Below, piece after piece: positions 3,143 to 60,961 of a stretch of 64,000 nucleotides of DNA. Made by a program: the position numbers and the translations under genes. Each line of letters starts with the position of its first letter. Positions within the stretch are counted from its first letter, which is position 1. The notes under the pieces were generated by a model. The model searched no databases and was not told where the DNA came from. It saw only the letters and a program-made list of their open reading frames with translations. Source of the DNA: Patescibacteria group bacterium (GTDB lineage Bacteria; Patescibacteriota; Minisyncoccia; Moranbacterales; UBA2206); NCBI GenBank assembly GCA_022709735.1, contig JAKLIG010000002.1:65949-129948 (forward strand), given 5' to 3'.

Positions 3143-3229
3143 CCCTCAGTAGGAATCCCTGCCTGCCGGCAGGCAGGAAACCTACATCTCATTCTTAGGA
3201 CGGATTTGCTCCCCGCCTGCCATCGCCTG
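3141..3229 (-). pseudogene. partial duplicate of the tRNA-Arg 3' half (anticodon arm to 3' end), with a 20-bp perfect palindrome in the T-loop
   Basis: The minus strand reads AGCAAATCCGTCCTAAGAATGAGATGTAGGTTT[CCTGCCTGCCGGCAGGCAGG]GATTCCTACTGAGGGCAC. This is near-identical to positions ~22-73 of the adjacent intact tRNA but lacks the acceptor 5' strand and D-arm. Confidence 0.5.
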
Positions 3230-3301
3230 TGCCCTCAGTAGGAATCGAACCTACATCTCATCCTTAGGACGGATTTGCTCTATCCATTGAGCTATGAGGG
3301 C
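3230..3301 (-). tRNA. tRNA-Arg (anticodon CCU)
   Basis: Reverse complement GCCCTCATAGCTCAATGGATAGAGCAAATCCGTCCTAAGGATGAGATGTAGGTTCGATTCCTACTGAGGGCA folds as a cloverleaf. Acceptor stem is 7 bp, D-arm is GCTC/GAGC, anticodon loop is GTCCTAA, T-arm is GTAGG-TTCGATT-CCTAC. Confidence 0.8.
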
Positions 3302-3350
3302 AGAGGCAAAGGCGGGCAGGTATCCGTTGAACTACAGGGACAGAATTATT

Positions 3351-4283
3351 TTATACAGCTTCTCTTTTTATATTTTTCTTTTCCATATATTCGTCCAGCG
3401 CTTCATCTTCCCACGCTAATAGTTTACTTCCATAATGAGTTCCGCTACGTTCTTTGCCGCTTTCTTTTGCCTCTTCTTTTATACACTTTAAAATCAACTT
3501 GATTATCGTATTATTTTTTCGAAGCTTTTGATATGTATCATCATATAGAACATTCCTGTTTAATAGTATGCCATTATCTAATTGAAGATCAGCAATATAT
3601 AAACATCTCTTAAATTCTCTCTTGAGCATTTTTTCAATGACTGTGTCATCTTTTTCCTTCAAGGCTTTTTCAAAAACTGCATCGGGATAATTTTTGCCAG
3701 CTTCTTTTTCCAAAAGTTTTATTTGGTTATAATACTCATACTTTTTGCCATACGCAACCTGCATAAGTTTCTCCTTAGCCTCTAAATATTCCTTATATTT
3801 TTCAGGTTTATTAACTTTATTAATCTCTTCTAAAAAAGATTGAATATCTTCTTCGAAAGAAAAAGGCTCAGGATATTTTTTAAGAAACTCTTCTACATTT
3901 CTAGCATCAATTTCTTCATACGCATTGGCGTCATTTAAAACCAAACGAGCAATCATTCTTTCTATGTGTTTTTCTACCTGTTTATCTTCCGAAATTTCTC
4001 TGAATAACAAAGCTGGTTTGCCAGGATGTATGCCTGTAGAAATTTCTTCTAATTTCAATAATTCTTTAAAATCTTCCCTGGTAATTTCTCCGCCGGCAAC
4101 TTTTTTTAAGAATTCTTCTTTCGCTTTTATTTCCAAAACCAATCCTGTTTCGCCAAAAATCTTTGCATCTTTTTCTGACATAAAAATAATTATTTCTTTT
4201 TGTTTTTCAATATCAGGAGTTATTTCTTTTTCACCCATATTTTCTTTTTCCATTATTTTTGTAATTGATTCGGGATTGTACAT
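3351..4283 (-). CDS. hypothetical protein (acidic, Lys/Glu-rich, cytoplasmic)
   Basis: Long ORF (310 aa) with the local coding-like composition. No motif recognised. Confidence 0.45.
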   Translation of the reverse strand: MYNPESITKIMEKENMGEKEITPDIEKQKEIIIFMSEKDAKIFGETGLVLEIKAKEEFLKKVAGGEITREDFKELLKLEEISTGIHPGKPALLFREISEDKQVEKHIERMIARLVLNDANAYEEIDARNVEEFLKKYPEPFSFEEDIQSFLEEINKVNKPEKYKEYLEAKEKLMQVAYGKKYEYYNQIKLLEKEAGKNYPDAVFEKALKEKDDTVIEKMLKREFKRCLYIADLQLDNGILLNRNVLYDDTYQKLRKNNTIIKLILKCIKEEAKESGKERSGTHYGSKLLAWEDEALDEYMEKKNIKREAV

Positions 4284-4310
4284 ATTTTTAATTTAATTAT
4301 TAATAGTAAA

Positions 4311-4580
4311 TTATTTTTTACTTTTTCCAAATTTTGATTTCATTGCAATGAATGTTCCAACTGCAATGCCGAGTGAATATACAGTTATCGCTAAAATACT
4401 TCTTTCAGTGTCTAACCTTGTGAGTATATCATAAAATACTCCCAAACTTATCATCGAAGTAAAAAAAGAAAATGTCGAAGCTAAAAGCGGTCGATCCGTC
4501 GCAACATACTTTACATTGAGCGTCCAAAACACATCTTGCATCACTCCAACTAGAAAATAAATTATAAAATAAATATTCAT
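4311..4580 (-). CDS. small membrane protein (2-3 TM helices)
   Basis: 89-aa ORF with hydrophobic helices and a KFGKSKK C-terminal tail. Confidence 0.4.
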   Translation of the reverse strand: MNIYFIIYFLVGVMQDVFWTLNVKYVATDRPLLASTFSFFTSMISLGVFYDILTRLDTERSILAITVYSLGIAVGTFIAMKSKFGKSKK

Positions 4581-4593
4581 ATTTTTTTATTAG

Positions 4594-4666
4594 TGGACCT
4601 GAGGAGACTCGAACTCCTTACCTCAGCAATGCGAATGCTGCGCTCTACCAGCTGAGCTACAGGCCC
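4594..4666 (-). tRNA. tRNA-Ala (anticodon CGC)
   Basis: Reverse complement GGGCCTGTAGCTCAGCTGGTAGAGCGCAGCATTCGCATTGCTGAGGTAAGGAGTTCGAGTCTCCTCAGGTCCA. G3:U70 alanine identity pair is present. Anticodon loop is TTCGCAT. Confidence 0.8.
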
Positions 4667-4677
4667 TATTTTTAGAG

Positions 4678-4751
4678 TGGGTATATCCTGACTCGAACAG
4701 GAGACCTTTCCGATGTGAACGGAACGCTCTAACCAACTGAGCTATACACCC
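4678..4751 (-). tRNA. tRNA-Val (anticodon CAC)
   Basis: Reverse complement GGGTGTATAGCTCAGTTGGTTAGAGCGTTCCGTTCACATCGGAAAGGTCTCCTGTTCGAGTCAGGATATACCCA. Anticodon loop is TTCACAT. Confidence 0.8.
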
Positions 4752-4757
4752 AAAAGG

Positions 4758-4830
4758 TGGACCATACCGGGATCGAACCGGTCACCTCATCCGTGCCACG
4801 GATGCGCTCTACCAGATGAGCTAATGGCCC
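4758..4830 (-). tRNA. tRNA-Ala (anticodon GGC)
   Basis: Reverse complement GGGCCATTAGCTCATCTGGTAGAGCGCATCCGTGGCACGGATGAGGTGACCGGTTCGATCCCGGTATGGTCCA. G3:U70 pair is present. Anticodon loop is GTGGCAC. The 5' end overlaps the stop codon of the next ORF. Confidence 0.7.
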
Positions 4831-5600: not shown

Positions 5601-7172
5601 ATGGATTCAATAAAAATGCTTTGGGGTAAATTCAAAACTCAACCAGATATTTGGTTCTTTTTTGGATTTTTATTAACTTTTACCTTAAGTGTTCGAAAAG
5701 TACTGTTTTACTTTCCAATTCTTGGAACTTTTAATGAATATTCCGGGATGTATCTTTATATCTCTGATATATTTCTACTTTTAACCCTTCTTTCTTGGCT
5801 TATATCTATATTATGCAATAATAGTATTACTTTATCAAGATACTTGCCCCCCACTAAAAATCTATTATCTCATTACAAAACTTATTTAAAACAATTTTTA
5901 GTGGGGGGTGAACTGTGGATAAGTAATATATTTCACAGGTTATACATACTTTTACCATCTTTTTTAGTTTTACTTTCTTTTATATCAATTTTCTGGTCCC
6001 AAAATCAGTCAATAGCATTATTTAGATCTATTAAGCTTTTAGAGTTTTATTTACTCTATCTATACATTATCTTCCGCATTGTTCCACAATTGTTCCACGC
6101 TTGCCCGCCAGAAAAATGTTCCACGCTTGCCCCGTTAATCTTAGATGTTCCACGTGGAACATCTAAGATTATTACGGGGTGGAACAAACTACTTTTCGGC
6201 ACTATTATCTTTTTAGGCCTATTCCAAGCCATAATCGGCATTATCCAATTTTTCCTACAAAAATCTATCGGCCTATTTTGGCTCAAAGAAAGCCTAATTT
6301 CACCAGACATTCTTGGCGTGGCAAAAGTAATTTTAAATAGCGAAAAATTCATCCGCGCTTATGGTTTAATGCCACATCCTAATATTCTAGGAGGATTTCT
6401 ACTATTTTCAATTATTATAACTTTACTTTATCAAAAATGTTCCATGCGGAACATTAAAAATGGCATCTGGCTTTTTAGGCTTATTCTAACAATCCAAATT
6501 TTCTCTCTAATTTTAACTTTTTCAAAATCAGCCATAATTGGACTGCTTATCGCCTTAGTATATATTTATGTTTCACGTGGAACATTTATTAAGAACTTAA
6601 AGCAACTGCAAAATTTTAAACTTATAATTCTATCAGTCTTAATTATTTTATTTTCTAGTTTTATTTTAATCAAACCAGATCTGAATTCTCTATTTACCAA
6701 ATCTCTAAATGAACGTTTATTCTATCTGAATGTTCCACATGGAACATTCGTGGAACATCCAATTTTAGGAATTGGAACCGGACAATCGGTTTTAATGATG
6801 CAAAAATTTTATTCGCAAACTCTAAACTTCTGGGAATATCAGCCTGTTCATAATGTTTTTTTGCTTATCCTAAGCGAACTAGACGTATTCGGTCTTGGAG
6901 TATTTATTTGGTGGTTATGGGAATTGTTCCATGCAAAACAATTAAAAGAGAAGAATAACGAGTATATATTACAAAACAATAATACCACTTTGTCAAGTAT
7001 TGTTATCTCCCGCTATTTCAAAGGAATTCTTCTAGGTCTTATCTTTATAATGCTTTTTGATCATTATTTATGGGATATTCAGCAAGGAAGCTTTCTATTT
7101 TGGCTAACCGCCGGATTTGTTGCTGGAATAACCAAAAACTGGTATTGTGGAAATGAAATTGTAATTAGTTAG
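5601..7172 (+). CDS. O-antigen ligase/Wzy-like polytopic membrane protein carrying multiple in-frame palindromic repeat insertions
   Basis: At least 10 predicted TM helices. The C-terminal region carries the Wzy_C-like motif NERLFYLNVPHGTFVEHPILGIGTGQS. The reading frame stays open across 6 palindromic DNA repeats (see findings). Confidence 0.5.
   Translation: MDSIKMLWGKFKTQPDIWFFFGFLLTFTLSVRKVLFYFPILGTFNEYSGMYLYISDIFLLLTLLSWLISILCNNSITLSRYLPPTKNLLSHYKTYLKQFLVGGELWISNIFHRLYILLPSFLVLLSFISIFWSQNQSIALFRSIKLLEFYLLYLYIIFRIVPQLFHACPPEKCSTLAPLILDVPRGTSKIITGWNKLLFGTIIFLGLFQAIIGIIQFFLQKSIGLFWLKESLISPDILGVAKVILNSEKFIRAYGLMPHPNILGGFLLFSIIITLLYQKCSMRNIKNGIWLFRLILTIQIFSLILTFSKSAIIGLLIALVYIYVSRGTFIKNLKQLQNFKLIILSVLIILFSSFILIKPDLNSLFTKSLNERLFYLNVPHGTFVEHPILGIGTGQSVLMMQKFYSQTLNFWEYQPVHNVFLLILSELDVFGLGVFIWWLWELFHAKQLKEKNNEYILQNNNTTLSSIVISRYFKGILLGLIFIMLFDHYLWDIQQGSFLFWLTAGFVAGITKNWYCGNEIVIS
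6081..6190. repeat. nested palindromic element: 30-bp perfect palindrome tcttagatgttccacgtggaacatctaaga, preceded by two direct copies of gttccacgcttgcccg
   Basis: Read directly. The core ATGTTCCACGTGGAACAT recurs in degenerate form at ~6436-6455, 6568-6585, 6729-6760 and 6922-6941. Confidence 0.8.
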
Positions 7173-11091: not shown

Positions 11092-13563
11092 TTATAGCAC
11101 AGTCGAGGCAGAAACTTTGTCCCCAGCTTGCGGTCTCATAACTCTCACTCCTTGCGTTGCTCGTCCAAGAACAGAAACGCTTCCCAGCGGAATTCTAATG
11201 ATTTGGCCTTTCTCGGAAGTGAGAATTAGATCAGTATCGAGCGCGTCCATATTGATAATTGTTGCGCCGACTATTTTTCCAGTCTTCGAAGTAACGGAAG
11301 CAGTTTTTATTCCCGAGCCTCCGCGCTTTTGCACTTTGTAGAATTTCAGATCTGATCTTTTGCCAAAACCATTTTCAGAAATTGTCAGAAGCTGGTTGCC
11401 TTTTTGATTTTTGAAAACCACATCCATTCCCACGACCTTGTCATCTTTCTTAAGTTTTATTCCACGCACTCCCGCCGCATTTCTTCCCATCGAACGAACA
11501 TCCGATTCTTTGAATCTAATCGCTTGACCATTTTTGGTAGTGATGACAATTTCATCTGTTCCGGTGGTCGCTTCCACCCAGCTAAGCATATCGCCCTTTT
11601 CAAGCTTGATCGCAATTAGTCCAGAACGGCGAACATTTTCAAATTCATCCAAGGTAGTTTTTTTGACTGTTCCCATTTCAGTTGTCATAAAGAAAAATTT
11701 ATAATTGTCATCTTTGTTGAAAGCGATAATCGCGGTGACACTTTCTTCTTGAGAAAGTGAGAGGAAGTTCACGATTGATTGACCCTTGGCGATTCTGGTT
11801 GATTCCGGAATTTCATAAGCTTTCGTTTGAAAAACTTTTCCACTGTTAGTGAAAAATAGCAAATTATCATGCGTCATTACGCCGAGCATTTTTTGAATCT
11901 CATCGCCCTCTCTTGTTGTCGCGCCAATCACGCCTTTGCCTCCGCGCTTTTGCACTTTGTAGACGCTTGGGTTCATTCTTTTTACATAGCCATCCTTAGA
12001 AAGAGTGATGATTGCTTCTTCATTCGGGACGAGATCTTCTTGTTTGAATTCGCCCACACCTGATTTTATCACTTTCGTTTTTCGCTCATCGCCATATTTT
12101 TCTTTGACGCGTGTTAATTCATCTTTGATAATTCCAAATATTTTTTTCTCGCTTTTTAGAATTGCTTCAAGTTCGGCGATGAGTTTTATTTTTTCCGCTA
12201 ATTCATCTTCAATCTTTTTTCGTTCGAGTCCAGCCAGAGTTTGCAGTTTCATTTCCAAAATTGCCGTGGCTTGTTTTTCCGACAATTTGAATTTCTTCAT
12301 CAAATTCTTATGCGCTTCTTCTTTCGTCCCCGATTTTTTGATTGTTTCAATCACCGCGTCAATATGATCCAAGGCAATTTTGAGTCCTTCCAAGATATGC
12401 GCTCGATCTCGCGCTTTTTCTAAATCAAATTTAGTGCGTCTCACAATTACAATTTTTCGATGCGCAATATATTCTTCCAAGATAGCTTTTAAATTCAAAA
12501 CTTTTGGTTCGATGCCGTTAACGAGCGCCAGCATATTCACACCAAAATTTTTCTGAAGATCAGTCAGTGAATATAATTTATTCAAAACTTTTTGCGGATA
12601 AGCATCTTTTTTGAGATCAACGACAATTCGCACACCTTCCTTGTCAGATTCATCACGAAGATCTTTTATTCCGACAATTTTTCCTTCATGCACAAGATTG
12701 GCAATATTTTCAATAAGCGTTGATTTGTTGGTCGCATAAGTAATCTCGCTAATTATAATTTGAAATGCGCCAGTCTTAGTTTCTACGATATCCGCTTTCC
12801 CACGGGTCAAAATTTTTCCGCGTCCGGTTTTGTAAGCTTCTAAAATATCTCGCTTGTTATAAATTATTCCGCCCGTTGGAAAATCTGGGCCTTTAATAAA
12901 TTCAGCGAGCTCTTCAACGGTTGCCTCGGAATTATCAATCAGATGATTTATGCCATCGATAAGTTCCGAAAGATTATGTGGAGGAATGTTGGTCGCCATT
13001 CCAACTGCGATTCCCATCGAACCGTTAAGTAGAAGTTGGGGAAGTCCGGCTGGGAGAACTGTTGGTTCTTTATGCTGGCCATCAAAATTCGGCACGAAAT
13101 CTACCGTATCTTTTTCAATATCCACTAGCATCTCTTCCGCCATTTGCGAAAGTTTGGCTTCTGTATAACGATAAGCGGCTGGGCCATCGCCGTCCATTGA
13201 GCCAAAGTTTCCTTGTCCTTTCACCATTGGATAGCGAAGAGAGAAATCTTGCGCCATTCGAACCATTGAGTCATAAACCGCGACATCGCCGTGTGGGTGG
13301 TATTTTCCAAGCACTTCTCCAACAACAGTGGCTGATTTTCGAAATTTGGCGTTCGCGCGAAGCCCAGTGTTCCACATGGAATAGAGAATTCTTCGATGAA
13401 CTGGCTTCAAACCGTCCCTAACATCCGGCAGAGCACGGGACACAATCACGCTCATGGCATAATCTAAATAGGATTGCTGGATTTCAAGAGTAATTTCGCG
13501 ATTTTGAACATTTTTTTCTCCCTCGTTAGAAATATTTTGTATAGATTTTTTTTCTTCTGACAT
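11092..13563 (-). CDS. gyrA: DNA gyrase subunit A
   Basis: Carries [21 protein letters not shown], the AAYRYTE region of the catalytic Tyr, and C-terminal beta-pinwheel repeats. 823 aa. Confidence 0.95.
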
Positions 13564-23570: not shown

Positions 23571-23644
23571 GGGTGTTTAGCTCAGCTGGTTAGAGCGTCA
23601 CATTGACATTGTGAAGGTCACTGGTTCGAGTCCAGTAATACCCA
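23571..23644 (+). tRNA. tRNA-Val (anticodon GAC)
   Basis: GGGTGTTTAGCTCAGCTGGTTAGAGCGTCACATTGACATTGTGAAGGTCACTGGTTCGAGTCCAGTAATACCCA. Anticodon loop is TTGACAT. Confidence 0.85.
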
Positions 23645-23654
23645 CTAAAATATT

Positions 23655-23726
23655 GGGACCATAGCTCAGCGGTAGAGCAGGCGACTCATAATCGCTTGGT
23701 CGAAGGTTCGAATCCTTCTGGTCCCA
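23655..23726 (+). tRNA. tRNA-Met (CAU; elongator type, or tRNA-Ile2 substrate of TilS)
   Basis: GGGACCATAGCTCAGCGGTAGAGCAGGCGACTCATAATCGCTTGGTCGAAGGTTCGAATCCTTCTGGTCCCA. G1-C72 pair and no GGG/CCC anticodon stem, so not an initiator. Confidence 0.75.
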
Positions 23727-23730
23727 CAAA

Positions 23731-23762
23731 AAAACAATCCTTGAATGGATTGTTTTAAATTT
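23731..23762. terminator. bidirectional hairpin terminator between the tRNAs and the recombinase gene
   Basis: aaacaatccttgaatggattgttttaaatttt forms an 8-bp stem. Confidence 0.5.
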
Positions 23763-23771
23763 TATTAAAAA

Positions 23772-24716
23772 TTATTTTCCCCTTCTTCTCGCGTGAAAGG
23801 CTTTGTGAATTTCCTTAAGATGTGGATTGGTAACATGAGTATAAATTTGCGTGGTGTTTATTGAGGCATGCCCGAGCATCGCTTGGACCGACCGAATATC
23901 CGCGCCGTTCATCAAAAGATCAGTCGCAAAAGAATGGCGAAGCGTATGCGGATGGACATCTTTCACAATCCCGGCTTTGACCGCATAATACTTCACGATT
24001 CGTTGAATAGACCTCGGGGTTAATCTCAAATTGTCAGATTTATTCTTATTTTTTTCTTTTTTACCCTCGAATTTTTTAAGCCCCGCGCTATCCCGCACAA
24101 AAAGCGCCGGATCAATGTCTTCTCTCTTTTTGAGATATTCGCAGAGCGCCCGAGAGGCCGTGTCAGAAATAAAAACCACTCTGATTTTATTTCCCTTGCC
24201 TCGAACACTCAATTCTCCGCTTTTTAGATTGAGTTTTTCTCGATCAATGCTAATGAGCTCGGAAACCCGAAGACCAGCCGAAAAAAGTAGCTCCAGAATT
24301 GCCCGATCACGAAGAGATTTGAAACTTACTCCGCTCGCTGCGCCCAAAATCCTTTCCACCTCGGCATTTTCCAAAAAATCTACCTCTCGTTCCGGCGTTT
24401 TCCCGATTTCCACCTTTTCCGCTTGAAGCGTTTTAACATCTCTTTTCGCCATATATTTCAAAAAACAACGAAGAGCAATAATATAATAATTTTGCGTAAT
24501 TTTCTTGAGATTTTGACCTTTTTCGTCGACAAAACGGTTGAGATATAGCCTAAAATTTCTAATTAAATCATCCGTGATTTCTCTTGGCTCTTCAATTTTT
24601 GCCCAAACTAAAAATTTTTCCAAATAACGATCATAATTTTCAATCGTTTTGGGCGACCGCTGTTTTTCCACCTCCAAATATTCAAGAAATTGCGTTTTAA
24701 GCTCTTTTAGCTTCAT
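23772..24716 (-). CDS. tyrosine site-specific recombinase (XerC/XerD family)
   Basis: C-terminal HTLRHSFATDLLMNGADIRSVQAMLGHASINTTQIYTHV carries the R-H-R-Y catalytic signature. The N-terminal core-binding domain is of XerD type. Confidence 0.8.
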   Translation of the reverse strand: MKLKELKTQFLEYLEVEKQRSPKTIENYDRYLEKFLVWAKIEEPREITDDLIRNFRLYLNRFVDEKGQNLKKITQNYYIIALRCFLKYMAKRDVKTLQAEKVEIGKTPEREVDFLENAEVERILGAASGVSFKSLRDRAILELLFSAGLRVSELISIDREKLNLKSGELSVRGKGNKIRVVFISDTASRALCEYLKKREDIDPALFVRDSAGLKKFEGKKEKNKNKSDNLRLTPRSIQRIVKYYAVKAGIVKDVHPHTLRHSFATDLLMNGADIRSVQAMLGHASINTTQIYTHVTNPHLKEIHKAFHARRRGK

Positions 24717-47329: not shown

Positions 47330-48685
47330 ATGATTAATAATATTCAACTATTAGATCAATACAATCAACTCCGAGAAATTTCCCAAGAAGCGATTGATCA
47401 TATTGATTCTGGTGTGGCCGAACGAGTCCTAAGAGAAATCAGAAAAAATTTCCCTGTTTTAAATTTGGGAAAGGCCACTTCTGATTTAGACAAAAAAATA
47501 TATGATCTACAGATAAAAATGCAGATTGTCAACTTTTTAGCCATCACCAACGAAGAAGCAATGAATATATTCAAAAATCATCTTCTTTCTTTTTTTAGAA
47601 TTGACATTCCAATGGAAGAAAGAGTGATTTCTCGTTATAATTATGTTGGCTATTCCGAAAAAGAGTCAGCTCGACTGGCTTTGAAAAAAGCTATTTTGGA
47701 AAACAAAGAGAGACTAGGCAATCTAACTATAGGCGAATGGGTAAATAAATTTGAAGAAAAAGATGTTGCTCTTGGCAGGTCAGAAAATTCTATTATGACT
47801 TTTATGTCGGAAGATTTGGATGCAAAAAAATTGCCAAAAACAGAACATGGTCTTTTGAAAATAATTTTACATGTTTATAAAAAATTAATAGCCTTGAAAT
47901 TAATCGATATTTTTGATATTGCAGAAACATTAAAAGAATCTGCTGGCAATAAACAACCAGATAAAAGACAGTCCTACTTAAGATATATTTCGCCAGAAAC
48001 TGAACTTTCGGAAAATGCTAAAACTGCAAATCTTACTCTTCCCGACGCTCTCAAGAGTTATCCTGATCTTGGCGAACAGTTGATTACCTCAAATTATATA
48101 AAACTCAAAAATTTTCCCGAACCAGTTCGACCATCAATCAAAAACTGGCTTTCTGACTATACTTTCAACACTGGCTATGAATCACATGGCGCGATGGATC
48201 GCGGAACATATCTTTTCCGAAATGAAAATGCAAAAATCCTAAATTCAGCCGATCGCGAAAGACTTTCTTATGTTTTAAAAAGCTATGATGAAAATTCGCT
48301 AATTGATGTCAACACTAACACTAAACAAATAGTTTTCCCAAAAGCCGAATTGACTAAGCAACATGCTTCATCGATCAAAACAGAATACAAGCCTGCCCCA
48401 ATAGCAGAAAGAAAAAACACTTCTGATTTTGGCGCGCAAAATCAAGCCTCAAGAAACTTTCAAGAAATTTACAATGCCCCAAAACAAAATGTTCAACCAA
48501 AAAATGAGCCCTTGAGTTTCAGCTCCCCACAAAAACTTCCCTATGAAAAACAAACGGCTCTGACTAAAAATTATAGCCCTCAACCGATGAGAATTTCCTC
48601 ACAAAATTCAAAACAAAATGAAAATAATAATTCAAAAAATAACCGCAATGTTCCACCAGGGAATATTGTAAACTTAAAAGAATAA
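47330..48685 (+). CDS. hypothetical soluble protein within T4SS-like cluster
   Basis: 451 aa. No TM and no NTP-binding motif. Confidence 0.4.
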   Translation: MINNIQLLDQYNQLREISQEAIDHIDSGVAERVLREIRKNFPVLNLGKATSDLDKKIYDLQIKMQIVNFLAITNEEAMNIFKNHLLSFFRIDIPMEERVISRYNYVGYSEKESARLALKKAILENKERLGNLTIGEWVNKFEEKDVALGRSENSIMTFMSEDLDAKKLPKTEHGLLKIILHVYKKLIALKLIDIFDIAETLKESAGNKQPDKRQSYLRYISPETELSENAKTANLTLPDALKSYPDLGEQLITSNYIKLKNFPEPVRPSIKNWLSDYTFNTGYESHGAMDRGTYLFRNENAKILNSADRERLSYVLKSYDENSLIDVNTNTKQIVFPKAELTKQHASSIKTEYKPAPIAERKNTSDFGAQNQASRNFQEIYNAPKQNVQPKNEPLSFSSPQKLPYEKQTALTKNYSPQPMRISSQNSKQNENNNSKNNRNVPPGNIVNLKE

Positions 48686-48686
48686 T

Positions 48687-49085
48687 ATGTTATTCAATGT
48701 TCCACAATTTATCGATATTGAAGACAAAATTGTCGGCCCACTCACGGCCAAACAACTTGGTTGGCTTGGAATTGCTGGAGTTTTACTTCTTATTTTCTGG
48801 GGTACGCTCACTTTTTCCACTTTTGTCTTTGTCGCAATAATAACTCTTGGGATTTTTGGCGCCTTGGCATTTTATCGACCATATAACCAGCCCCTTTCAA
48901 ATCTTATAATGTCTGGAATAAATTATTTTATAAAACCGAAAGTCTATGTTTGGAAGAGATATTATGATAATATAAAAGCAACCAGCCAAGTTTCTGTTCA
49001 TCCTAAAGAAGAAGTTATTATTAGAAAAAAAGTTTTAGATAATAAAAAAATAGAAGAATTAACAAAAATACTAAATCAAAAATAA
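48687..49085 (+). CDS. VirB3/PrgI-like small two-TM protein
   Basis: 132 aa with two adjacent TM helices. It sits immediately upstream of VirB4, the conserved VirB3 position. Confidence 0.45.
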   Translation: MLFNVPQFIDIEDKIVGPLTAKQLGWLGIAGVLLLIFWGTLTFSTFVFVAIITLGIFGALAFYRPYNQPLSNLIMSGINYFIKPKVYVWKRYYDNIKATSQVSVHPKEEVIIRKKVLDNKKIEELTKILNQK

Positions 49086-49774
49086 TGGAATTTCTACATT
49101 CAAAAAAATTATCAAAAGAAGCGTCTTCTTCGCCTACCCAAAAATACTTGGATGTAGCAGAAATTAAAGATGATGTGGTTGTTCTGAAATCCGGCGCGCT
49201 TCGTTCTATTCTGGCGGTATCCGCAATCAACTTTGATTTGAAATCAACTGACGAGCAAGAAGCCATCATCAATCAATATCAGAATTTCTTGAATTCTGTA
49301 GATTTTCCTATCCAAATTCTAATCAGTTCTCGAAAACTGAATATGCAAACTTATCTTGACTATATCACCGAAAAGGAAAAAACCCAGTCAAGCGAACTTC
49401 TCCGAATGCAACTGGCAGAATACAAAAGTTTTATCGAGCAACTAGTAAGCGGTTCAAATATTATGGAAAAAAATTTCTATATAATTATCCCGTTTTCTCC
49501 AATTGAAAATCAAGAAAAAGGATTTTTTTCAAATATCGGAAGCCTCATGAACCCGCAGAAGAATATTCTAGAAAAAAGAGAGAATTTTGAAACATACAAA
49601 AACCAACTTTTTCAAAGAATCGACCATGTTATCGCTGCCCTCTCTGGAATTGGCTTGCGCATTGCGCCTCTCAAAACTGAAGAGCTTATTGAACTTTTGT
49701 TTGATTCCTACAATCCTGAAGTTTTCAATGCAACAGAACTTAAGGATATAAATAAATTAGAACTACAAAAATAA
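49085..49774 (+). CDS. VirB4/TraC N-terminal domain encoded as a separate ORF
   Basis: DDVVVLKSGALRSILAVSAINFDLKSTDEQEAIINQYQNFLNSVDFPIQIL matches the N-terminal domain of Gram-positive-type VirB4 (TcpF/Orf16-like). It ends in an A5 tract 4 nt before the next ORF, which is in the +1 frame. Confidence 0.55.
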   Translation: MEFLHSKKLSKEASSSPTQKYLDVAEIKDDVVVLKSGALRSILAVSAINFDLKSTDEQEAIINQYQNFLNSVDFPIQILISSRKLNMQTYLDYITEKEKTQSSELLRMQLAEYKSFIEQLVSGSNIMEKNFYIIIPFSPIENQEKGFFSNIGSLMNPQKNILEKRENFETYKNQLFQRIDHVIAALSGIGLRIAPLKTEELIELLFDSYNPEVFNATELKDINKLELQK

Positions 49775-49778
49775 ATTC

Positions 49779-51605
49779 ATGCTTAATTTATTCAAAAAAA
49801 ATACAAACACTCCTGCTCCCGCCAAACCGACTAATGAAGTTTTAGAATCAGAAAAATATTATCAAGAAGGGGTTTCTCGCCTCAACGATCTTTTGGCGCC
49901 CGCAGCTATAAAAGTAACTCCAAAATATATCCGAGTAGGCGAAACTCTCGCCCAAACTATTTTTGTCGTCGCTTATCCACGATTTCTAAATAGCAACTGG
50001 TTTTCACCGATTATAAACATCGACTTGCCGATAGATATTTCCATGTTTATTCATCCAATTGAAACTTACGACATTTTGAAAGATCTTAAAAAAAATGCCA
50101 CTCGAGTTGAATCACAACTTCATATCGAACAAGAAAAAGGTATGATTCGTGATCCTGCTCTCGAAACAGCCATTCAGGATATTGACGAACTTCGGGACAA
50201 ACTTCAACAAGGAACAGAAAAATTTTTCCGCTTTGGGCTCTATATCACTGCTTATGGAGAAAATGAAAAAGAACTTTCTGACATTTCTCGTTCCATTGAA
50301 GCAATTTTGGAAGCGCAATTGGTTTATATAAAACCGGCTATTTTTAAGTCTGAACAAGGATTCAATTCCACCCTTCCTCTTGCCAATGATGAATTAGACA
50401 TTGGAAGCAGCATGAATAGCGCTCCGCTTTCTACTACATTTCCTTTTGTTTCCTCCACCCTTTCTTCTAATGATGGAATTCTCTATGGAATAAACCGCCA
50501 CAACAATAGCTTGATTATTTTTGATCGATTCAAAATGGAAAACGCTAATATGGTAGTTTTTGCTAAATCTGGTGCTGGAAAAAGCTATACCATAAAGCTA
50601 GAAGTTCTCCGATCTCTTATGATGGGAACAGATGTTATTATTATTGATCCAGAAAATGAATACAAACATTTATGCGAAACAGTCGGTGGAACTTTTATAA
50701 AAATTTCCCTAAATTCCAACAACCATCTCAATCCTTTTGATTTACCACATATCAAAGAAGATGAGGATCCTGAAGATATCCTTCGAAATAACATTGCCAA
50801 TCTTCTCGGGCTTTTTCATATTATGCTTGGAAATATTACTCCAGAAGAAGATTCTATTTTAGGTCGAGCCATTCGGGAAACCTATGCTGTCCGCGATATT
50901 ACGGCTGAATCAAATTTCGATACTCTTACAAAAGAATCCTATCCCACCATGACTGATCTTTATCAAATTCTTCGCAGTATGGACGGCGGAGAAAACTTGG
51001 CCATTCGAATGGAAAAATATACGGAAGGAATTTTTTCAGGTTTCTTAAATAATACTACCAACATAAGCGTAAATAACCCGATGATGGTTTTCAATATCCG
51101 TGACATGGAAGAAGAATTGCGTCCAATTGCTATGTATATGGTAATGCAGTTTATTTGGAATGAAATGAGAACAACACTCAAGCGCCGGCTGGTTTTGGCC
51201 GATGAAGCTTGGGTAATGATGAAGTATGACGATGCTGCTTCTTTTATGTTCGGAATTGCTAAGCGTTGCCGAAAATATTATACCGGTCTCACTACCATCA
51301 CCCAGGATGTCAACGACTTTCTAAGCTCGCGCTACGGAAAAGCCATTGTCACCAACTCCTCAATTCAATTGCTTTTAAAACAATCGCCAGCCGCCGTGGA
51401 TGTTATCAGCGAAACTTTCTATCTCACTGACCAGGAAAAATTTCTTCTCTTGGAATCAAATGTCGGTGAAGGAATTTTTTTCGCTGGCACAAAGCATGTT
51501 GCTATTAAGGTTGTAGCTTCATATTCAGAGGATCAAATAATTACTACTGATCCAGCTCAACTTTTAGAAATTGAGCAAGCCAAAAAAGAATTCTCTGAAG
51601 AATAA
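49779..51605 (+). CDS. VirB4/TrbE-family T4SS ATPase (middle and C-terminal ATPase domains)
   Basis: YIRVGETLAQTIFVVAYPRFL middle-domain motif. Walker A AKSGAGKSY and Walker B RRLVLADEAW. Confidence 0.85.
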   Translation: MLNLFKKNTNTPAPAKPTNEVLESEKYYQEGVSRLNDLLAPAAIKVTPKYIRVGETLAQTIFVVAYPRFLNSNWFSPIINIDLPIDISMFIHPIETYDILKDLKKNATRVESQLHIEQEKGMIRDPALETAIQDIDELRDKLQQGTEKFFRFGLYITAYGENEKELSDISRSIEAILEAQLVYIKPAIFKSEQGFNSTLPLANDELDIGSSMNSAPLSTTFPFVSSTLSSNDGILYGINRHNNSLIIFDRFKMENANMVVFAKSGAGKSYTIKLEVLRSLMMGTDVIIIDPENEYKHLCETVGGTFIKISLNSNNHLNPFDLPHIKEDEDPEDILRNNIANLLGLFHIMLGNITPEEDSILGRAIRETYAVRDITAESNFDTLTKESYPTMTDLYQILRSMDGGENLAIRMEKYTEGIFSGFLNNTTNISVNNPMMVFNIRDMEEELRPIAMYMVMQFIWNEMRTTLKRRLVLADEAWVMMKYDDAASFMFGIAKRCRKYYTGLTTITQDVNDFLSSRYGKAIVTNSSIQLLLKQSPAAVDVISETFYLTDQEKFLLLESNVGEGIFFAGTKHVAIKVVASYSEDQIITTDPAQLLEIEQAKKEFSEE

Positions 51606-51608
51606 ATT

Positions 51609-52175
51609 ATGCTATACGATCCTCAAAAAAAACAAAATTTTGAAGATGAAAAACTAAAAACTCGTCAAGAAAAAGCTCAGAAAACATTGAAAGAAAACAG
51701 CATTGGAAAAAACAAAGGCCAAGCGCAAAAAACTATCCGATCCGCTAAAAATTTACTAAAAAAACTCACTCCGCTTCACGCCTTGTCTCTTGCTACCCAA
51801 ATCCGACCGTCTGATTTAGTTTATCTCATCGCCCTAGTTGCAGCAATTTTAAAAGATTTTTTAATAGATCCTATTGAAGCTACAGGGATAGGTTATGCTT
51901 TTGTATTTATAATAACACTCCTTGTTTCAATCCTTATTTGGTTTATGATGACTTTGGCAAATTTTTCCGATAGCGGGCAAAAGGTGAATCATAAGGTAAT
52001 AAAAAGCTGGCTTGTTCTCTTGGGAGGAACAACCGCCGAAATGCTTTTTGGAGTTAATATTCTGCCAATTGAAACACTCACAGTTTTTATTATATATTTT
52101 ATGGCACTTTCTGCCCGAAAAGAAGCTAAAGAAAAAGCCAAAGAAGAAGCTGCTGCGCAAGAAAGTTATGCCTAA
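51609..52175 (+). CDS. membrane protein (3-4 TM), unknown function
   Basis: 188 aa. Starts 4 nt after VirB4. Confidence 0.4.
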   Translation: MLYDPQKKQNFEDEKLKTRQEKAQKTLKENSIGKNKGQAQKTIRSAKNLLKKLTPLHALSLATQIRPSDLVYLIALVAAILKDFLIDPIEATGIGYAFVFIITLLVSILIWFMMTLANFSDSGQKVNHKVIKSWLVLLGGTTAEMLFGVNILPIETLTVFIIYFMALSARKEAKEKAKEEAAAQESYA

Positions 52176-52199
52176 AAATTTCGTGCCACTCACAAACAT

Positions 52200-52880
52200 A
52201 TGCGCTATTATAGAAAAAAAAGTTTTTTGTCCCGCTTAACTAGCGTTTTTATCGATAATAAGGAAATTGCCATCACCTGCTTGGTAATTATTTTTTGTTT
52301 ACTTTTATCAATTATTTTTCCGGTCAACAATTCCGTCCAGCTTCTTACTCGAAATATTTTTTTTCTGATTATTGTTCCAATTCTTTATTATAAATTAATT
52401 CTTGGAAAAAGATTTTCCGACTTGGGCCTGATTTTAGGCGACAAAAGGGCGGGAATTTTTTGGGGAATTATTTTGTTCTTTGTTTCTCTTTTGATTTTTT
52501 ATCTTCTTTATACCTATACAGATTTTAAAAAAAATTATTTGCTTTCATCCTATGTCGTCCATAATTTCTGGCTTTTTTTGCTTTACGAGCTTTTACTCGC
52601 CAATCTTTTTGTTTTTATCCAAGAATTTTTTTGGCGCGGATTTATCTTACTTTATTTTTCCAAAAAAATATCTTACTTTTCAATTTTTTTACAATTTATT
52701 CTTTTCACATTGATGCTTATTCCAGCAAAAAATACTTTTTGGCAAATGGCACCAACACTAGTAATTTCCCTTTTTTCTGGTATAATTGTATACAAAAGCC
52801 GGTCTATTTTATATTCTTGGATTTTCGCTTTGTTTTCCCTGGTAATTTTAGATAGTTTCATAATCTATCATTTAAAATGA
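52200..52880 (+). CDS. CPBP-family (CAAX/Abi) intramembrane protease-like protein
   Basis: Polytopic. QEFFWRGF matches the EExxxR motif-1 region. Confidence 0.4.
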   Translation: MRYYRKKSFLSRLTSVFIDNKEIAITCLVIIFCLLLSIIFPVNNSVQLLTRNIFFLIIVPILYYKLILGKRFSDLGLILGDKRAGIFWGIILFFVSLLIFYLLYTYTDFKKNYLLSSYVVHNFWLFLLYELLLANLFVFIQEFFWRGFILLYFSKKISYFSIFLQFILFTLMLIPAKNTFWQMAPTLVISLFSGIIVYKSRSILYSWIFALFSLVILDSFIIYHLK

Positions 52881-55669
52881 AAAATAAAAAGTTCAAAAAA
52901 ATTTATTCAATATTAAACTTGGTTGTTATTGTTTTGCTATTTTTTTCCCAAACAGGAATAGCGCAAGCTATTGATGTAGGAAGTGTCGGCAATATTATGG
53001 GTGTCAGTAGCCCGGCTGGTTTTTTAGATTCCATCTTTGACGATCTCGAATTAGATAAAGAAGAACTCAAATATGACATTCAGACATTCAATTCATCTAG
53101 CTCGAAAAAAACTCCACCGTCAGTTTCTCTATTTTTTAGCCCGGCTAATCCAAGCGAGGGAGAAAAAATCACCGTCACTGCTTCCCCAACTTATTTTCTA
53201 AATGACCCCAAGGAATTATATTATACTTGGTTTTTAAAAACAGAGGATTGTGATAGAACTAACAATATCACAGAAGAAAACAGAAAATGCGACCTTGATG
53301 AAGATGAGGATATCGATATTGAAGATTATAAAATAAAAGCTACTAAAATCATTGCTAACGGTGGATTTGTTTTGCCTGAAAATTATGGGGAACTTGAAAA
53401 ACTTTACCAAAGCGACTCTGATGATGATGGCTATGATGCTTATACGGGAGGTAATGATCAAAAAGGCAAAAACCCCTATTGCTACATTCACAATATAGAA
53501 ACTGGTGAGGAATATCGAATAAAGCATTGCGAGGAAGATGATGAAGAAGATGTTGATTTCAAAGATCTCCATCTTTTCCCAAATGCTCCTTACAGAACAA
53601 CTGGAAATGGAGAATTTGATACAATTGAAGAAAAATTCTGGAACACTGATCCAAACAGCAACGATACTGCCGGTACTGGAAATTCCGATGAAGCTAATGT
53701 AGCCGGGTTAGGCATAACTAACTTTACTTGGAATTATCAAAAGGGCGATGAAGTAGGAGTAGCAGTAGAAGGAGTCTCCACTGAACCGACTCAAACAGAT
53801 GATTCTTCCTACAAAACCATGTGGGCGATAAGCAAGGGGACTTATGAAGTTGATACTACTTATAATGAAAATGACTATCCGGAAACTACTACTCTAAGCA
53901 CAGATACTGATTTAAATACGCCTGTGCTTGGGCAAACCACTGTCACGATCAAAACTAAAGTTGAAGAAATTGATACTGACGAAGATGGAAATGAAAAAAT
54001 TGTCAATGAAATTGCCACAATTAAAACCACTTATTATACTAGAGTTACTATAACTAATGATATAACCGGAGACATTATAAGCGATGATACTGATCCGGAT
54101 GAATCAACAACCGAAGATCCAAACCCAGCCTATTCCACAGCCAATCTTGCTGGAGAGTTTGATATAGAAGCAAATGATTATGAAATTGAAAAGCCCTCTG
54201 ATTTAAATAAGCTTTTATACAAGGCCTTAGTTTCTCCTCAAGAAAACAGTGCCGGGAGTAATAAATTGGAAATTAATCTTTCTTATTCTCCTTCCAATCC
54301 AATAAATGATCCAACCGGCGAGCAAAGCGATATATTAGTTATCCATTCTTCTATTCCAAATGCTAAAGATAATAATTATTTGCAATATAAATGGAGTGTT
54401 TATAATAGTGACGAAGTAAATCCTGATAGTTGGGGGAACGCTATGCTAAAAACTGACCTGCCTGAATCAACTCAATCGATTGGATTTGGAATTGATACTT
54501 TTAAATTTAAATTAGCTTTAGAAAATCCAAAAAAATATATTAGAGTTGCTCTGACTGCCACAGAAAATGTTGGAGAAACATATTCTCGAAAAACTAGCCA
54601 GGATTTAATTATTCCAATTACTTCTATAGACGAAAATGAACAGATAAGCGCTTCCATTGCTTCCATTACGACGGCTGATCCTTCAGATACGGCCAATCTA
54701 TCTGGGATAAGTCTTGGTTTAGGCACTCAAATTTGCGATGTCAACGCTACCGAAAAAGCTGTTTGCCCAATTACTAAAAATCAAATTATAGGGCTATCCT
54801 ATCCAAAGAATACTTCTTCAACTACTGCCCAAGATTTTCTTTGGACAATTGATGGCAAACCATTTTCTTATCCATATTGCTATTTTGATGGCTGTGATTC
54901 AACTCATCCAGAAATGCAAACCAATACAGCCTTTTTCCCGGTTCTCAAAGAAGTTGGCGAGAAATATATGATAACTCTTACAACCGTGGATGCGGATAAG
55001 AATGGAAAGAAAATAAATTTAACAAAAACTTTTAAGGTGGTCGAACCAAAAATTGAAATTATTTCAGCAGATGAAAGTTGCGCTATCGGAGACAAAAATT
55101 GCAGACGGGAAGTTATAGGAAAATATTTCGATGTTGATGGCACATCATTCCCTGACTACAGTCGAAATAAATTTTGGGCGATAGTTGGCTCTAATGTCAA
55201 ATTGAAGGCTATAGCTAGCTTTCCGGTTTCCCCAGAAGAATATATTTGGACAGTTGATGGCACTTCGATAAATTATTACAACGCTAGCGACTATGGCTTC
55301 AGTATCGATGATACCGGCGCTCTTATCTTGCCTCCAAAAGAAAAACAAGGAGAAAATTATAATATATCTGCGAGCGCTCTCTATACCCAAGATCCCTTAG
55401 TTAAAAAAGCACTGAAAAATATTTGGAATATAACTTATAATCAATTCTATGAAAAACCCGTTTCTGATAACATTATTGTAAATATGTATAATGAAGAAGC
55501 AGTGACTACTACTCAAAAATCAGTTAAAAAAGTATTCGCTTCAGTATTTTCCTCTGCTCCAGCTTATATTGCCTTTCTTCTTAGAGTAGTTCTCACTATA
55601 TTCATCCTCCTATTCACAGTAAATTTAATTTTTTCTTTTTCTCCAAAAATTAATTCAAAAGAAGATTAA
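52877..55669 (+). CDS. large (930 aa) acidic Thr/Asp-rich surface protein with signal peptide and C-terminal TM anchor
   Basis: N-terminal signal peptide. C-terminal AYIAFLLRVVLTIFILLFTVNLIF helix. Confidence 0.5.
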   Translation: MKNKKFKKIYSILNLVVIVLLFFSQTGIAQAIDVGSVGNIMGVSSPAGFLDSIFDDLELDKEELKYDIQTFNSSSSKKTPPSVSLFFSPANPSEGEKITVTASPTYFLNDPKELYYTWFLKTEDCDRTNNITEENRKCDLDEDEDIDIEDYKIKATKIIANGGFVLPENYGELEKLYQSDSDDDGYDAYTGGNDQKGKNPYCYIHNIETGEEYRIKHCEEDDEEDVDFKDLHLFPNAPYRTTGNGEFDTIEEKFWNTDPNSNDTAGTGNSDEANVAGLGITNFTWNYQKGDEVGVAVEGVSTEPTQTDDSSYKTMWAISKGTYEVDTTYNENDYPETTTLSTDTDLNTPVLGQTTVTIKTKVEEIDTDEDGNEKIVNEIATIKTTYYTRVTITNDITGDIISDDTDPDESTTEDPNPAYSTANLAGEFDIEANDYEIEKPSDLNKLLYKALVSPQENSAGSNKLEINLSYSPSNPINDPTGEQSDILVIHSSIPNAKDNNYLQYKWSVYNSDEVNPDSWGNAMLKTDLPESTQSIGFGIDTFKFKLALENPKKYIRVALTATENVGETYSRKTSQDLIIPITSIDENEQISASIASITTADPSDTANLSGISLGLGTQICDVNATEKAVCPITKNQIIGLSYPKNTSSTTAQDFLWTIDGKPFSYPYCYFDGCDSTHPEMQTNTAFFPVLKEVGEKYMITLTTVDADKNGKKINLTKTFKVVEPKIEIISADESCAIGDKNCRREVIGKYFDVDGTSFPDYSRNKFWAIVGSNVKLKAIASFPVSPEEYIWTVDGTSINYYNASDYGFSIDDTGALILPPKEKQGENYNISASALYTQDPLVKKALKNIWNITYNQFYEKPVSDNIIVNMYNEEAVTTTQKSVKKVFASVFSSAPAYIAFLLRVVLTIFILLFTVNLIFSFSPKINSKED

Positions 55670-55678
55670 AAAAACAAA

Positions 55679-56230
55679 ATGAAAAAAATATTTATATTTA
55701 CATTTATTTCTTTATTTGCTTTTCCTTCAATAACAGAGGCCTATTGTTCTTGCTACAATCGACAATATTTTGCAACTACAATTGGCGAGGAAATTACGGA
55801 AGATATAGGGGCTGATAAATGTGACCAAGAATGTGCCAATCGCAGAACGAAATACTATTGTCTTAAAGATGTTTGCGCATCATATGACATTGTTCCTATC
55901 ACAAAAACACCTACCACTACTGATACCACTACTATAGGAACCTACAAACCCATGGAAGAAATTCCAGGATTTGGAAGGCCAGAAAATTTTCCAGCATACC
56001 TTATGGCAATTTATAAATTTGGTCTTTGGGCAATCGGAATGTGCGCAGTTTTTATGATTATGATCGGCGGATATATGTATTTGACTTCTGCTGGCAACAA
56101 TACTCAAACTGGAAAAGCTAAGGGAATTATCACAGACGCTATAGCCGGACTTATCCTAGCGTTAGTTTCGTATCTTTTGCTTTATACAATCAATCCAGAT
56201 TTAGTCATATTTACATCTATAATAAAATAA
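55679..56230 (+). CDS. VirB2/TrbC-like pilin candidate
   Basis: Signal peptide, Cys-rich segment, then two hydrophobic helices (LMAIYKFGLWAIGMCAVFMIMIGGYMYL...AIAGLILALVSYLLLY) in the TrbC/VirB2 arrangement. Confidence 0.45.
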   Translation: MKKIFIFTFISLFAFPSITEAYCSCYNRQYFATTIGEEITEDIGADKCDQECANRRTKYYCLKDVCASYDIVPITKTPTTTDTTTIGTYKPMEEIPGFGRPENFPAYLMAIYKFGLWAIGMCAVFMIMIGGYMYLTSAGNNTQTGKAKGIITDAIAGLILALVSYLLLYTINPDLVIFTSIIK

Positions 56231-56243
56231 AAAATAAAAAACC

Positions 56244-57128
56244 ATGTTTTCTAAAAAAAGTTTTTTTGCAACAATCATAATTTTGCTGTTTTTATTTTTG
56301 CCCCTAGCCTTGATTAATGCTCAAGGTGTAGTTCCTTGCGGGCATGGCGATGATCCAAATAATGCTTGCACGCTTTGCCACCTAATCATCGGCATCAAAA
56401 AAATTATTGATTTTGGCTTGAAATTGCTTGTCGTTGTCGCATTTATTGGAATTTTTATCGCTGGCATAATGTATATCATTTCTTCCGGGTCTGAAGAGAT
56501 GATGAAACGTGCCAAGGCTTTTCTTACTGCCAGTCTTACTGGGTTTGCTATAACTTTAGGCGCATGGCTAATCGTAAATATTGTGATATGGAGCCTTTCT
56601 GCCAATCCCACAATAGGCATTAAAGGGGCTAATTGGTATACCTTTACTTGCAGTACTAAAAGCTCTGCTGCTAATCCAGCAGTAACAACCCCTAGCGCTC
56701 CTAGTGCGCCTAGCACACCTAATGCTCCTAGTGCTCCTGGAGGGGGAGGAACTGCTTCAGGATATACCTATGATCCAGGAATTCAATCTCAAGCATCAGA
56801 TGCCTCAGGAGATTTAACTCAACTTTTAAATTGCATGCAGCCGAAACTGCCTACTGAAGCCAAAAGAATCAGTTCTATTTCCGATTCACATGGAATGGAA
56901 AATTGTGCAGGAACAGCATGGGAAAGTAGTTGCGCTCATACAAAAGATTCTTGCCACTATGGTGGAAAAAATTCTAGTTGTATTGGGAAATCATATGCTG
57001 CTGATTTTGGAAATGAAAGCTATTCTAATCAAATAATTTCAACGGCGAGATCATGCGGAGCAAATTATGCAGTCATGGAAGGAAATCATGTCCATGTCAG
57101 CGTTGGAGCTTCTTGCGGATGTAACTAA
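56244..57128 (+). CDS. second VirB2/TrbC-like pilin domain fused to a Pro/Ala/Ser linker and a Cys-rich C-terminal domain
   Basis: Signal peptide. Pilin-like helices KLLVVVAFIGIFIAGIMYI / FAITLGAWLIVNIVIW. Linker PSAPSAPSTPNAPSAPGGGG. At least 8 Cys in the C-terminal 140 aa. Confidence 0.4.
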   Translation: MFSKKSFFATIIILLFLFLPLALINAQGVVPCGHGDDPNNACTLCHLIIGIKKIIDFGLKLLVVVAFIGIFIAGIMYIISSGSEEMMKRAKAFLTASLTGFAITLGAWLIVNIVIWSLSANPTIGIKGANWYTFTCSTKSSAANPAVTTPSAPSAPSTPNAPSAPGGGGTASGYTYDPGIQSQASDASGDLTQLLNCMQPKLPTEAKRISSISDSHGMENCAGTAWESSCAHTKDSCHYGGKNSSCIGKSYAADFGNESYSNQIISTARSCGANYAVMEGNHVHVSVGASCGCN

Positions 57129-57140
57129 TTTAGCAAAAAA

Positions 57141-60781: not shown

Positions 60782-60961
60782 ATAAATAGCTGGCTTGAAG
60801 ACGCCAAAGAATTAAAATTTTTACGGAATTCCTGTTTGAGAATTTGAATTTTATCTAAAAATTTCCATCGGTAGCTGTTGATTGAGGGAAATTTTTAGCT
60901 ATAAAATTCTGAATTCGAGTTTAATTTCGGAAAAATTTTAATTCTTTAATATTTTAACCTG

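Follow-up and report, generated by a model that had tools for sequence, protein, structure and literature searches.

A probable centromere of parS-type sites within a membrane-protein gene of Moranbacteria and related Patescibacteria

The locus and its palindromes

The 64-kb stretch of DNA analysed here (the window) comes from a Patescibacteria group bacterium and contains a gene (5601-7172, plus strand) in which a short palindrome recurs in frame. The gene, identified from its open reading frame (ORF) and a Pfam match, encodes a polytopic membrane protein of 523 amino acids of the Wzy_C (O-antigen ligase/polymerase-like) type. Its match to PF04932 (E = 2.7e-11, 43.9 bits) lies above the curated cut-off of 31.7, and the protein has multiple hydrophobic helices, which places it in the family. 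It is 100% identical to the NCBI entry 'O-antigen ligase family protein [Candidatus Moranbacteria bacterium]', which derives from a metagenome-assembled genome (MAG).

Across the family, palindromic sites fall into six loop hot spots (A to F), and the six features of the window occupy one loop each. The most complete is a perfect match to TGTTCCACGTGGAACA, the 16-bp parS site of Pseudomonas aeruginosa and P. putida, at 6146-6161 in loop B, where it is read as VPRGT. It forms the centre of a 36-bp perfect palindrome found by inverted-repeat search (6136-6171), which is enclosed by a nested, imperfect palindrome of ~70 nt (6117-6186; DNA fold -28.2 kcal/mol, z = -7). The outer parts of the latter are split half sites, TGTTCCAC ... 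GTGGAACA, together with a CCCCG/CGGGG clamp. Word counts and a repeat search also located three orphan half sites, GTTCCAC, on the plus strand (at 6081, 6092 and 6118, within 6081-6139). Two of them, 6092 and 6118, belong to a 26-bp tandem duplication (unit AAWTGTTCCACGCTTGCCC) just upstream of the palindrome, in which GTTCCACGCTTGCCC occurs twice (6088-6106 and 6114-6132).

Four less perfect sites follow downstream. Loop C contains TGTTCCATGCGGAACA (6438-6453), which has two central mismatches, and loop D contains TGTTTCACGTGGAACA (6569-6584), a variant read as VSRGT in which both half sites are canonical forms. In loop E, TGTTCCACATGGAACA, with one central mismatch, is accompanied by an extra half site, GTGGAAC (6750-6756; together 6731-6756), while loop F holds TGTTCCATGCAAAACA (6925-6940), a weak, decayed relic with mismatches at 4 of its 16 positions. 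In orthologues, loop F is a hot spot for sites, and loop E, whose site is the only one kept in place throughout the family, carries about one site per gene. The clustering is far from random: the 18-mer ATGTTCCACGTGGAACAT, allowing up to 3 mismatches, has four matches (6145, 6437, 6568 and 6730) against 0.02 expected from shuffles, and GTTCCAC occurs nine times in 6081-6756 and 18 times in the whole window, where 2.2 copies are expected. Outside the host gene, the window contains no other site within 1 mismatch of parS.

Most of this layout had been recognised in an earlier note on the same DNA, which described a core palindrome repeated within one gene, a ~70-bp imperfect palindrome around one copy, two preceding direct copies (those carried by the tandem duplication) and several degenerate copies; all of these were found. 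The perfect palindrome, reported there as 30 bp long (6139-6168), is real but extends to 36 bp. The 523-codon frame is open, as had been claimed, and encodes the quoted peptides VPRGTS, SMRNIK, SRGTF and VPHGTFVEH.

Every site in the window lies in a non-helical, low-confidence segment of the protein or at a helix end, as judged from hydropathy and an AlphaFold model. The parS-like sites correspond to residues 161-195, 280-285, 323-328, 377-386 and 442-447. The model is of modest quality (predicted local distance difference test score, pLDDT, 60; predicted template modelling score, pTM, 0.69) and was used only to separate helices from loops; it has no significant PDB match, by fold or by sequence. 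The inserts do therefore lie in loops, a placement that had been put forward for checking against the topology, and they are in-frame insertions into tolerant parts of the protein.

Identity of the motif

The 16-mer at 6146-6161 is letter-identical to a validated parS site. TGTTCCACGTGGAACA is parS2 and parS3 of P. aeruginosa (PMC4368675) and is also given for P. putida, while the version of Myxococcus xanthus ends in G (PMC7022226). The site fits the general chromosomal parS consensus TGTTNCACGTGAAACA, and GTTCCAC and GTTTCAC are half-parS sites that are targeted by ParB in P. aeruginosa (PMC7022226). The variants seen in the window and in orthologues remain within the known range of parS, with T/C exchanges at position 5 and its mirror position, and a central CG replaced by TG or CA. 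Since the motif is a published parS sequence, it is no new palindrome but the predicted target of the partition protein ParB. On this sequence identity, the palindromes are in all likelihood parS-type ParB sites, with ParB binding, and everything downstream of it, a prediction. The proposal, made earlier as a fallback, that they are repeated binding sites for a CACGTG-recognising factor would thus be essentially right, with ParB as that factor.

Conservation and confinement to one gene

Orthologous loci, consisting of the gene and up to 10 kb on each side, were compared in 80 species-representative genomes of Moranbacteria/Parcubacteria, counting sites with up to 1 mismatch to TGTTYCACGTGRAACA. 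The orthologous gene contains 591 sites (3.96 per kb), compared with only 4 in 1.15 Mb of flanking DNA (0.0035 per kb). No locus is without sites, and the number per gene ranges from 2 to 16, with a median of 7. Within the sampled loci and the window, the copies are therefore few and clustered rather than dispersed, as is typical of parS.

Exact TGTTCCACGTGGAACA accounts for 490 of 596 sites. The second commonest form is TGTTTCACGTGGAACA (42 of 596), followed by the canonical TGTTTCACGTGAAACA (14) and then by forms with a central CG-to-TG or CG-to-CA change. The 16-mer is nearly frozen despite the divergence of the host proteins, which are only 31-59% identical in the best-aligned segment. Beyond the 16 letters, the flanks contribute only an A-W ... 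W-T symmetry.

The same picture emerges from protein searches. The best 120 homologues (396-757 amino acids) are 34-59% identical, almost all over most of their length, and belong, where the source is named, to Moranbacteria, Parcubacteria and unclassified Patescibacteria. The peptides that the 16-mer yields in its three frames (VPRGT, CSTWN and [M/L]FHVE[H/Q]) are present in all but 5 of the 120, with up to 16 peptide-motif matches per protein. Aligned, these proteins show conserved transmembrane blocks and, between them, hypervariable inserts that hold the parS-derived peptides. A HMMER scan, run without a word index over 1.84 billion cluster representatives, recovered 353 family members at E ≤ 1e-30. 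Among 118 additional representatives, 97% have at least one of the peptides, 93% have at least two, and single proteins have up to 18. In the few members without exact peptides, near-sites are present, for example IVPCGTI, corresponding to TGTTCCATGTGGAACA. It is likely that hundreds of family members share this architecture.

Selection on DNA rather than peptide

Several lines of evidence indicate that the constraint acts on the DNA. Across the loci, the sites are read in all three frames (268, 179 and 145 sites). Of 204 VPRGT peptides, 202 are encoded by GTTCCACGTGGAACA, and of 135 CSTWN peptides, 130 by one fixed 15-mer. Background usage in the same genes is very different: CGT makes up 11% of the other Arg codons and GGA 39% of Gly codons, and the VPRGT 15-mer would be predicted at only ~0.2%. 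Two further Wzy_C paralogues in the window (58303-59469 and 59462-60781) contain no site; being free of parS-like palindromes, they serve as an internal control. The invariance of the codons across frames, together with the site-free paralogues, therefore places the constraint on a DNA word and on one paralogue specifically. This bears out the earlier suggestion that selection acts on the palindrome and not on the peptide.

A merely conserved peptide motif of the protein family can accordingly be ruled out, with next to no probability left to it. One position would fit it, namely YLNV[S/P]R[G/E]T (6729-6747), the sole position conserved family-wide, where YLNV[S/P]RGT is kept in place. However, the same DNA read in three frames yields three unrelated peptides, codon choice is fixed against background usage, and the positions and numbers of sites vary among species.

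Alternatively, the sites might function at the mRNA level, forming hairpins at which ribosomes pause between one transmembrane segment and the next, to the benefit of membrane insertion. They do lie between helix-coding segments, and several of them fold stably as single strands. Such a structure would permit compensatory changes, yet more than four-fifths of sites are identical in all 16 letters, and it is on this invariance that the hairpin reading was rejected as very improbable. In addition, the 6569 site barely folds (z = -0.1), the Wzy_C paralogues of the same genome manage without sites, and an Rfam scan of the window matched tRNAs only, with no RNA family at these sites.

Two related possibilities, that another protein binds the sites or that they are substrates for recombination, inversion or phase variation in a surface-glycan gene, are slightly less remote than the hairpins but still improbable. 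Several inverted repeats within one surface-related gene could mediate rearrangements, and neither the window nor the 80 loci yielded ParB itself. Against this, exact identity to parS makes a different binder unnecessary. No recombinase is conserved beside the gene; the window encodes a single integrase, which neighbours tRNA genes at a distance of 17 kb. Nearly all 80 loci have an intact ORF, no inverted or frame-broken alleles were seen among them, and inversion between palindromes inside the ORF would destroy the conserved transmembrane core. The phase variation envisaged in the earlier note is supported by neither a recombinase nor an invertible-segment layout.

Apparent growth and decay of the array

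The sites often extend beyond their core. Perfect palindromy reaches at least 5 nt further at 17% of sites, compared with 0.2% of random positions, and the longest perfect palindromes, in orthologous loci, measure 46 bp. Symmetric outer half sites surround 45 of 590 full sites. Many of these, contributed by at least 10 species, are ordered as half site, GCYTG, CCCC, arm, parS, arm', GGGG, half site. Arm sequences vary from species to species yet remain complementary; positions 6117-6186 of the window are one such element. Orphan half sites in orthologous genes are typically followed by GCYTGCCC, tandem duplications are present in the window gene and in locus L003, and the commonest spacing between sites is 40-60 bp. 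We read these patterns as the result of loops that tolerate insertion, where local duplication creates parS copies and decay removes them, while selection keeps a minimum number intact.

Such dynamics also raise the possibility of a selfish, in-frame palindromic element, comparable to those of Rickettsia or to a miniature inverted-repeat transposable element (MITE), whose likeness to parS would be incidental. In its favour, the inserts keep the frame and occupy loops whose length is hypervariable, their palindromy often runs well past the core, and nested and tandem copies suggest copy-and-paste growth. Moreover, a different and truly dispersed palindromic element shares these loops in close relatives, and an ORF resembling a transposase associated with repetitive extragenic palindromic (REP) sequences adjoins the gene in locus L055. 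A selfish element should, however, be dispersed over unrelated genes and intergenic regions, whereas in the window and the 80 loci the sites are concentrated in one gene, with the near-empty flanks described above. Its core would not be expected to be frozen in 80 species and equal to a known protein-binding site while the flanks vary, and no transposase is consistently linked. We therefore consider a selfish origin unlikely, though less so than the readings set aside above.

The parallel with Rickettsia elements drawn in the earlier note accordingly holds in part. Dispersed selfish insertion fails, while growth by duplication and the presence of a second, dispersed element in the same loops are in keeping with it. 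The note had itself named occurrence only here as an outcome that would speak against its reading and, since the motif is confined to one gene, this is the outcome obtained for the selfish element.

The second palindromic element is ~45-50 bp long and has the form CCCTCTCCTT-N-AAGGAGAGGG ... GGTGAGGT, flanked by ACCTCAYCC / GGGGTGAGGT. It lies in frame in the same loops of about nine close relatives, where it is translated into peptides such as PSPYKGEG, and is missing from the window's gene. It was observed in loci L001-L008, L034, L041 and L042 (for example, L003 6114-6160 and L002 10481-10560), with 23 copies inside the gene and 9 outside. Because it also occurs outside the gene, it resembles a REP-like or MITE-like dispersed repeat. 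The transposase-like ORF of L055 (1849-2451) is of the IS200-like/REP-associated tyrosine transposase type. It adjoins the orthologous gene on its downstream side, has a perfect parS at its end and was seen in 1 of the 80 loci.

A probable chromosomal centromere

Taken together, the array is very likely a ParB-binding parS array that makes up all or a large part of the chromosomal centromere, carried in frame in the loops of a membrane protein. It probably marks the chromosomal centromere of the relatives as well. Behind this reading stand three observations: the sequence is that of validated parS, the sites are confined to one gene, and their conservation in at least 80 species is independent of frame and codon usage.

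By analogy with known ParABS systems, ParB dimers would recognise each TGTTCCAC/GTGGAACA palindrome, and bound ParB would close as a CTP-dependent (cytidine triphosphate-dependent) clamp and slide onto neighbouring DNA. A single large partition complex could then form, marking the origin-proximal region for segregation via ParA and/or the loading of SMC. With several sites in ~1 kb, the gene would act as a high-capacity loading zone for ParB. Turnover of the arrays would involve duplication, both tandem and nested palindromic, as well as point decay, with selection keeping several intact sites per genome. The gene can host such sites because TGTTCCACGTGGAACA is free of stop codons in all frames on both strands and because inter-helix loops tolerate inserts of variable length.

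A further and doubtful extension is that the placement of the centromere in a membrane-protein gene serves a function and does not only reflect loops that accept inserts. If transcription and translation of the gene are coupled to insertion of its product into the membrane, ParB-parS, and with it the origin, might be tethered there, and the array would be renewed by palindrome-centred nested duplication. If true, such a tether would serve ultra-small cells as a built-in device for anchoring or segregation, or would link the synthesis of envelope glycans to the chromosome cycle.

The genomic context is informative about position. Conserved neighbours within 10 kb of the gene include an MBL-fold gene (51 of 80 loci), gyrA (42), an S1-domain gene (40), tilS (39) and ftsH (31). 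In locus L039, the order is dnaA, two small ORFs, the host-gene orthologue and gyrA, with dnaA 1.7 kb from the gene. This order and the gyrA neighbourhood are compatible with an origin-proximal position.

A number of findings weigh against the centromere interpretation. Proximity to the origin as judged by dnaA was seen in L039 only, and the window contains no dnaA, no cluster of DnaA boxes (which are near chance frequency) and no turn in GC skew. Neither the window nor the stretches of up to 10 kb on either side of the gene in the 80 loci encode ParB or ParA, an absence that says little because the sampled stretches are a small part of each genome. A query with a ParB consensus gave, among the 120 matches listed, only ParB proteins, none of them named as belonging to an organism of the candidate phyla radiation (CPR), and a hidden Markov model built from these listed proteins had no match in the 80 loci or the window. 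The window's own array is partly decayed, with only three sites within 1 mismatch of parS. To our knowledge, the density of up to 16 sites in less than 2 kb is above that of any chromosomal parS set. Lastly, the nested palindromes and this density show that element-like duplication dynamics are also at work.

Positive evidence of ParABS in the phylum comes here from one organism only. The patescibacterium Southlakia epibionticum has adjacent parA (K03496) and parB (K03497, with PF02195 and PF17762) genes, which in transposon sequencing (Tn-seq) were essential at two of three time points and showed a growth defect at the first (PMC10633639 supplement).

Comparison with known systems

In several respects the sites resemble the chromosomal parS sites of Bacillus subtilis, P. 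aeruginosa, M. xanthus, Caulobacter crescentus and other bacteria. The 16-bp palindrome is identical to parS2/parS3 of P. aeruginosa, several copies are clustered in one region, and a location inside coding sequence is typical. The spo0J gene of B. subtilis, for instance, contains a parS read as VPRET. Known chromosomal parS sets, however, are spread over many kb and different genes. By contrast, all sampled sites here lie in a single gene, with 2-16 sites per ~1.7 kb, in three frames and exclusively in loop-coding segments, and this relationship to a host gene is kept in at least 80 species. A further difference is that ParB binding is predicted here from the sites themselves.

The plasmid centromere sopC of F, in which 43-bp units that each contain a 16-bp inverted repeat are arranged in tandem, is similar in being a compact centromere with many closely placed palindromic sites of ParB type, and the commonest spacing of the sites described here is likewise 40-60 bp. 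Unlike sopC, the array has irregular spacing, lacks an adjoining parAB operon, lies inside an ORF that looks expressed, and has the chromosomal parS core. Rickettsia palindromic elements also place palindromic DNA in frame in tolerant surface or loop regions, where it is translated as extra peptide. Those elements measure ~100-150 bp and are scattered among many genes and intergenic regions, whereas the core here is 16-24 bp and is confined to one gene per genome in the sampled loci. A functional connection of ParB with the machinery for surface glycans has a precedent in Streptococcus pneumoniae, where CpsD and ParB couple capsule synthesis to chromosome segregation (PMC4574921). That link is an interaction between proteins, whereas here parS DNA is located within a glycan-related gene.

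The site itself is therefore ordinary; its architecture is not, with a dedicated host gene, three reading frames and 2-16 sites in less than 2 kb in at least 80 species-level lineages. In open-access papers and bioRxiv preprints, no description of a parS array in a membrane-protein gene was found, nor any link of parS/ParB with Patescibacteria, Moranbacteria or O-antigen ligase genes. A perspective paper on Patescibacteria does not mention segregation, and chromosome segregation in the CPR (Patescibacteria) appears to be unstudied.

If the centromere interpretation is right, this gene allows the centromere of a large uncultivated lineage to be located by sequence alone. The gene would provide an origin-region marker for fragmented MAGs, a defined target for ParB binding assays and, for genetic tools yet to be developed, a stabilisation cassette that is ready to use. 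It would also be a very clean natural case of dual coding, in which a protein-binding DNA word is kept letter-perfect in three frames and the cost is absorbed by protein loops.

Other features of the window and related loci

Loop A of the host gene carries a separate 15-bp perfect inverted repeat, CCCCCCACTAAAAAT / ATTTTTAGTGGGGGG (5847-5861 / 5894-5908), with a 32-nt spacer and a fold z-score of -5.5. It had been described previously and was confirmed by the inverted-repeat search. The repeat encodes residues 83-103 and belongs to a lineage-specific insert that is missing from most orthologues. It is not parS-like, its sequence is unrelated to that of the main palindrome, and no further copies were found in the window or in 81 related loci.

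Beyond the host gene, an isolated, weak parS-like site, TGTTCCACATGGAATA (13368-13383), is located within the 5' portion of gyrA, at a distance of 6 kb from the array, and may or may not be part of the parS system. Two half sites at 48650 and 48699 were considered as members and rejected, as they proved to be ordinary coding sequence, among it the beginning of a PrgI-family gene. Single parS sites were also observed in other genes a few kb from the array in three related loci (L016 2323, L028 3152 and L055 3234), where they are read as NV[P/S]RETF. The L055 site is canonical; those of L016 and L028 are one mismatch from the consensus and lie in orthologous ORFs of ~215 amino acids. Because the latter two occupy matching positions in orthologous proteins, they may represent a conserved secondary parS site.

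One MAG of UBA2206 contains two parS-bearing copies of the gene on two contigs (L005 and L042), which are 51% and 59% identical to the query in the best-aligned segment. The pair stems either from two strains binned together or from a true duplication of the centromere gene. Many contigs with the gene are labelled 'uncultured Bdellovibrionales', 'Ignavibacteriaceae', 'Methanosarcinales archaeon' or 'Saccharibacteria' (L006, L009, L012, L016, L020, L071 and others). These odd labels are probably binning or labelling errors, and the parS-bearing gene could act as a lineage marker that flags mislabelled contigs.

The remainder of the window contains several further gene groups. A four-tRNA cluster is located just upstream of the host gene, within 3229-4830, and a tRNA-Val/tRNA-Met pair adjoins a tyrosine recombinase of the Phage_integrase family (23772-24716; together 23571-24716). 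A type-IV-secretion-like cluster (47330-58298, plus strand) comprises a PrgI-family gene (48687-49085), a TraG/VirB4-like P-loop ATPase (49779-51605), a weak match to a type IV secretion system pilin (55679-56230) and several large ORFs without a Pfam match (795, 451 and 930 amino acids). The two Wzy_C paralogues, of 389 and 440 amino acids, stand in tandem within a glycan-synthesis cluster on the minus strand (58303-63993), which also includes two GT2 glycosyltransferases and a Polysacc_synt flippase-like gene.

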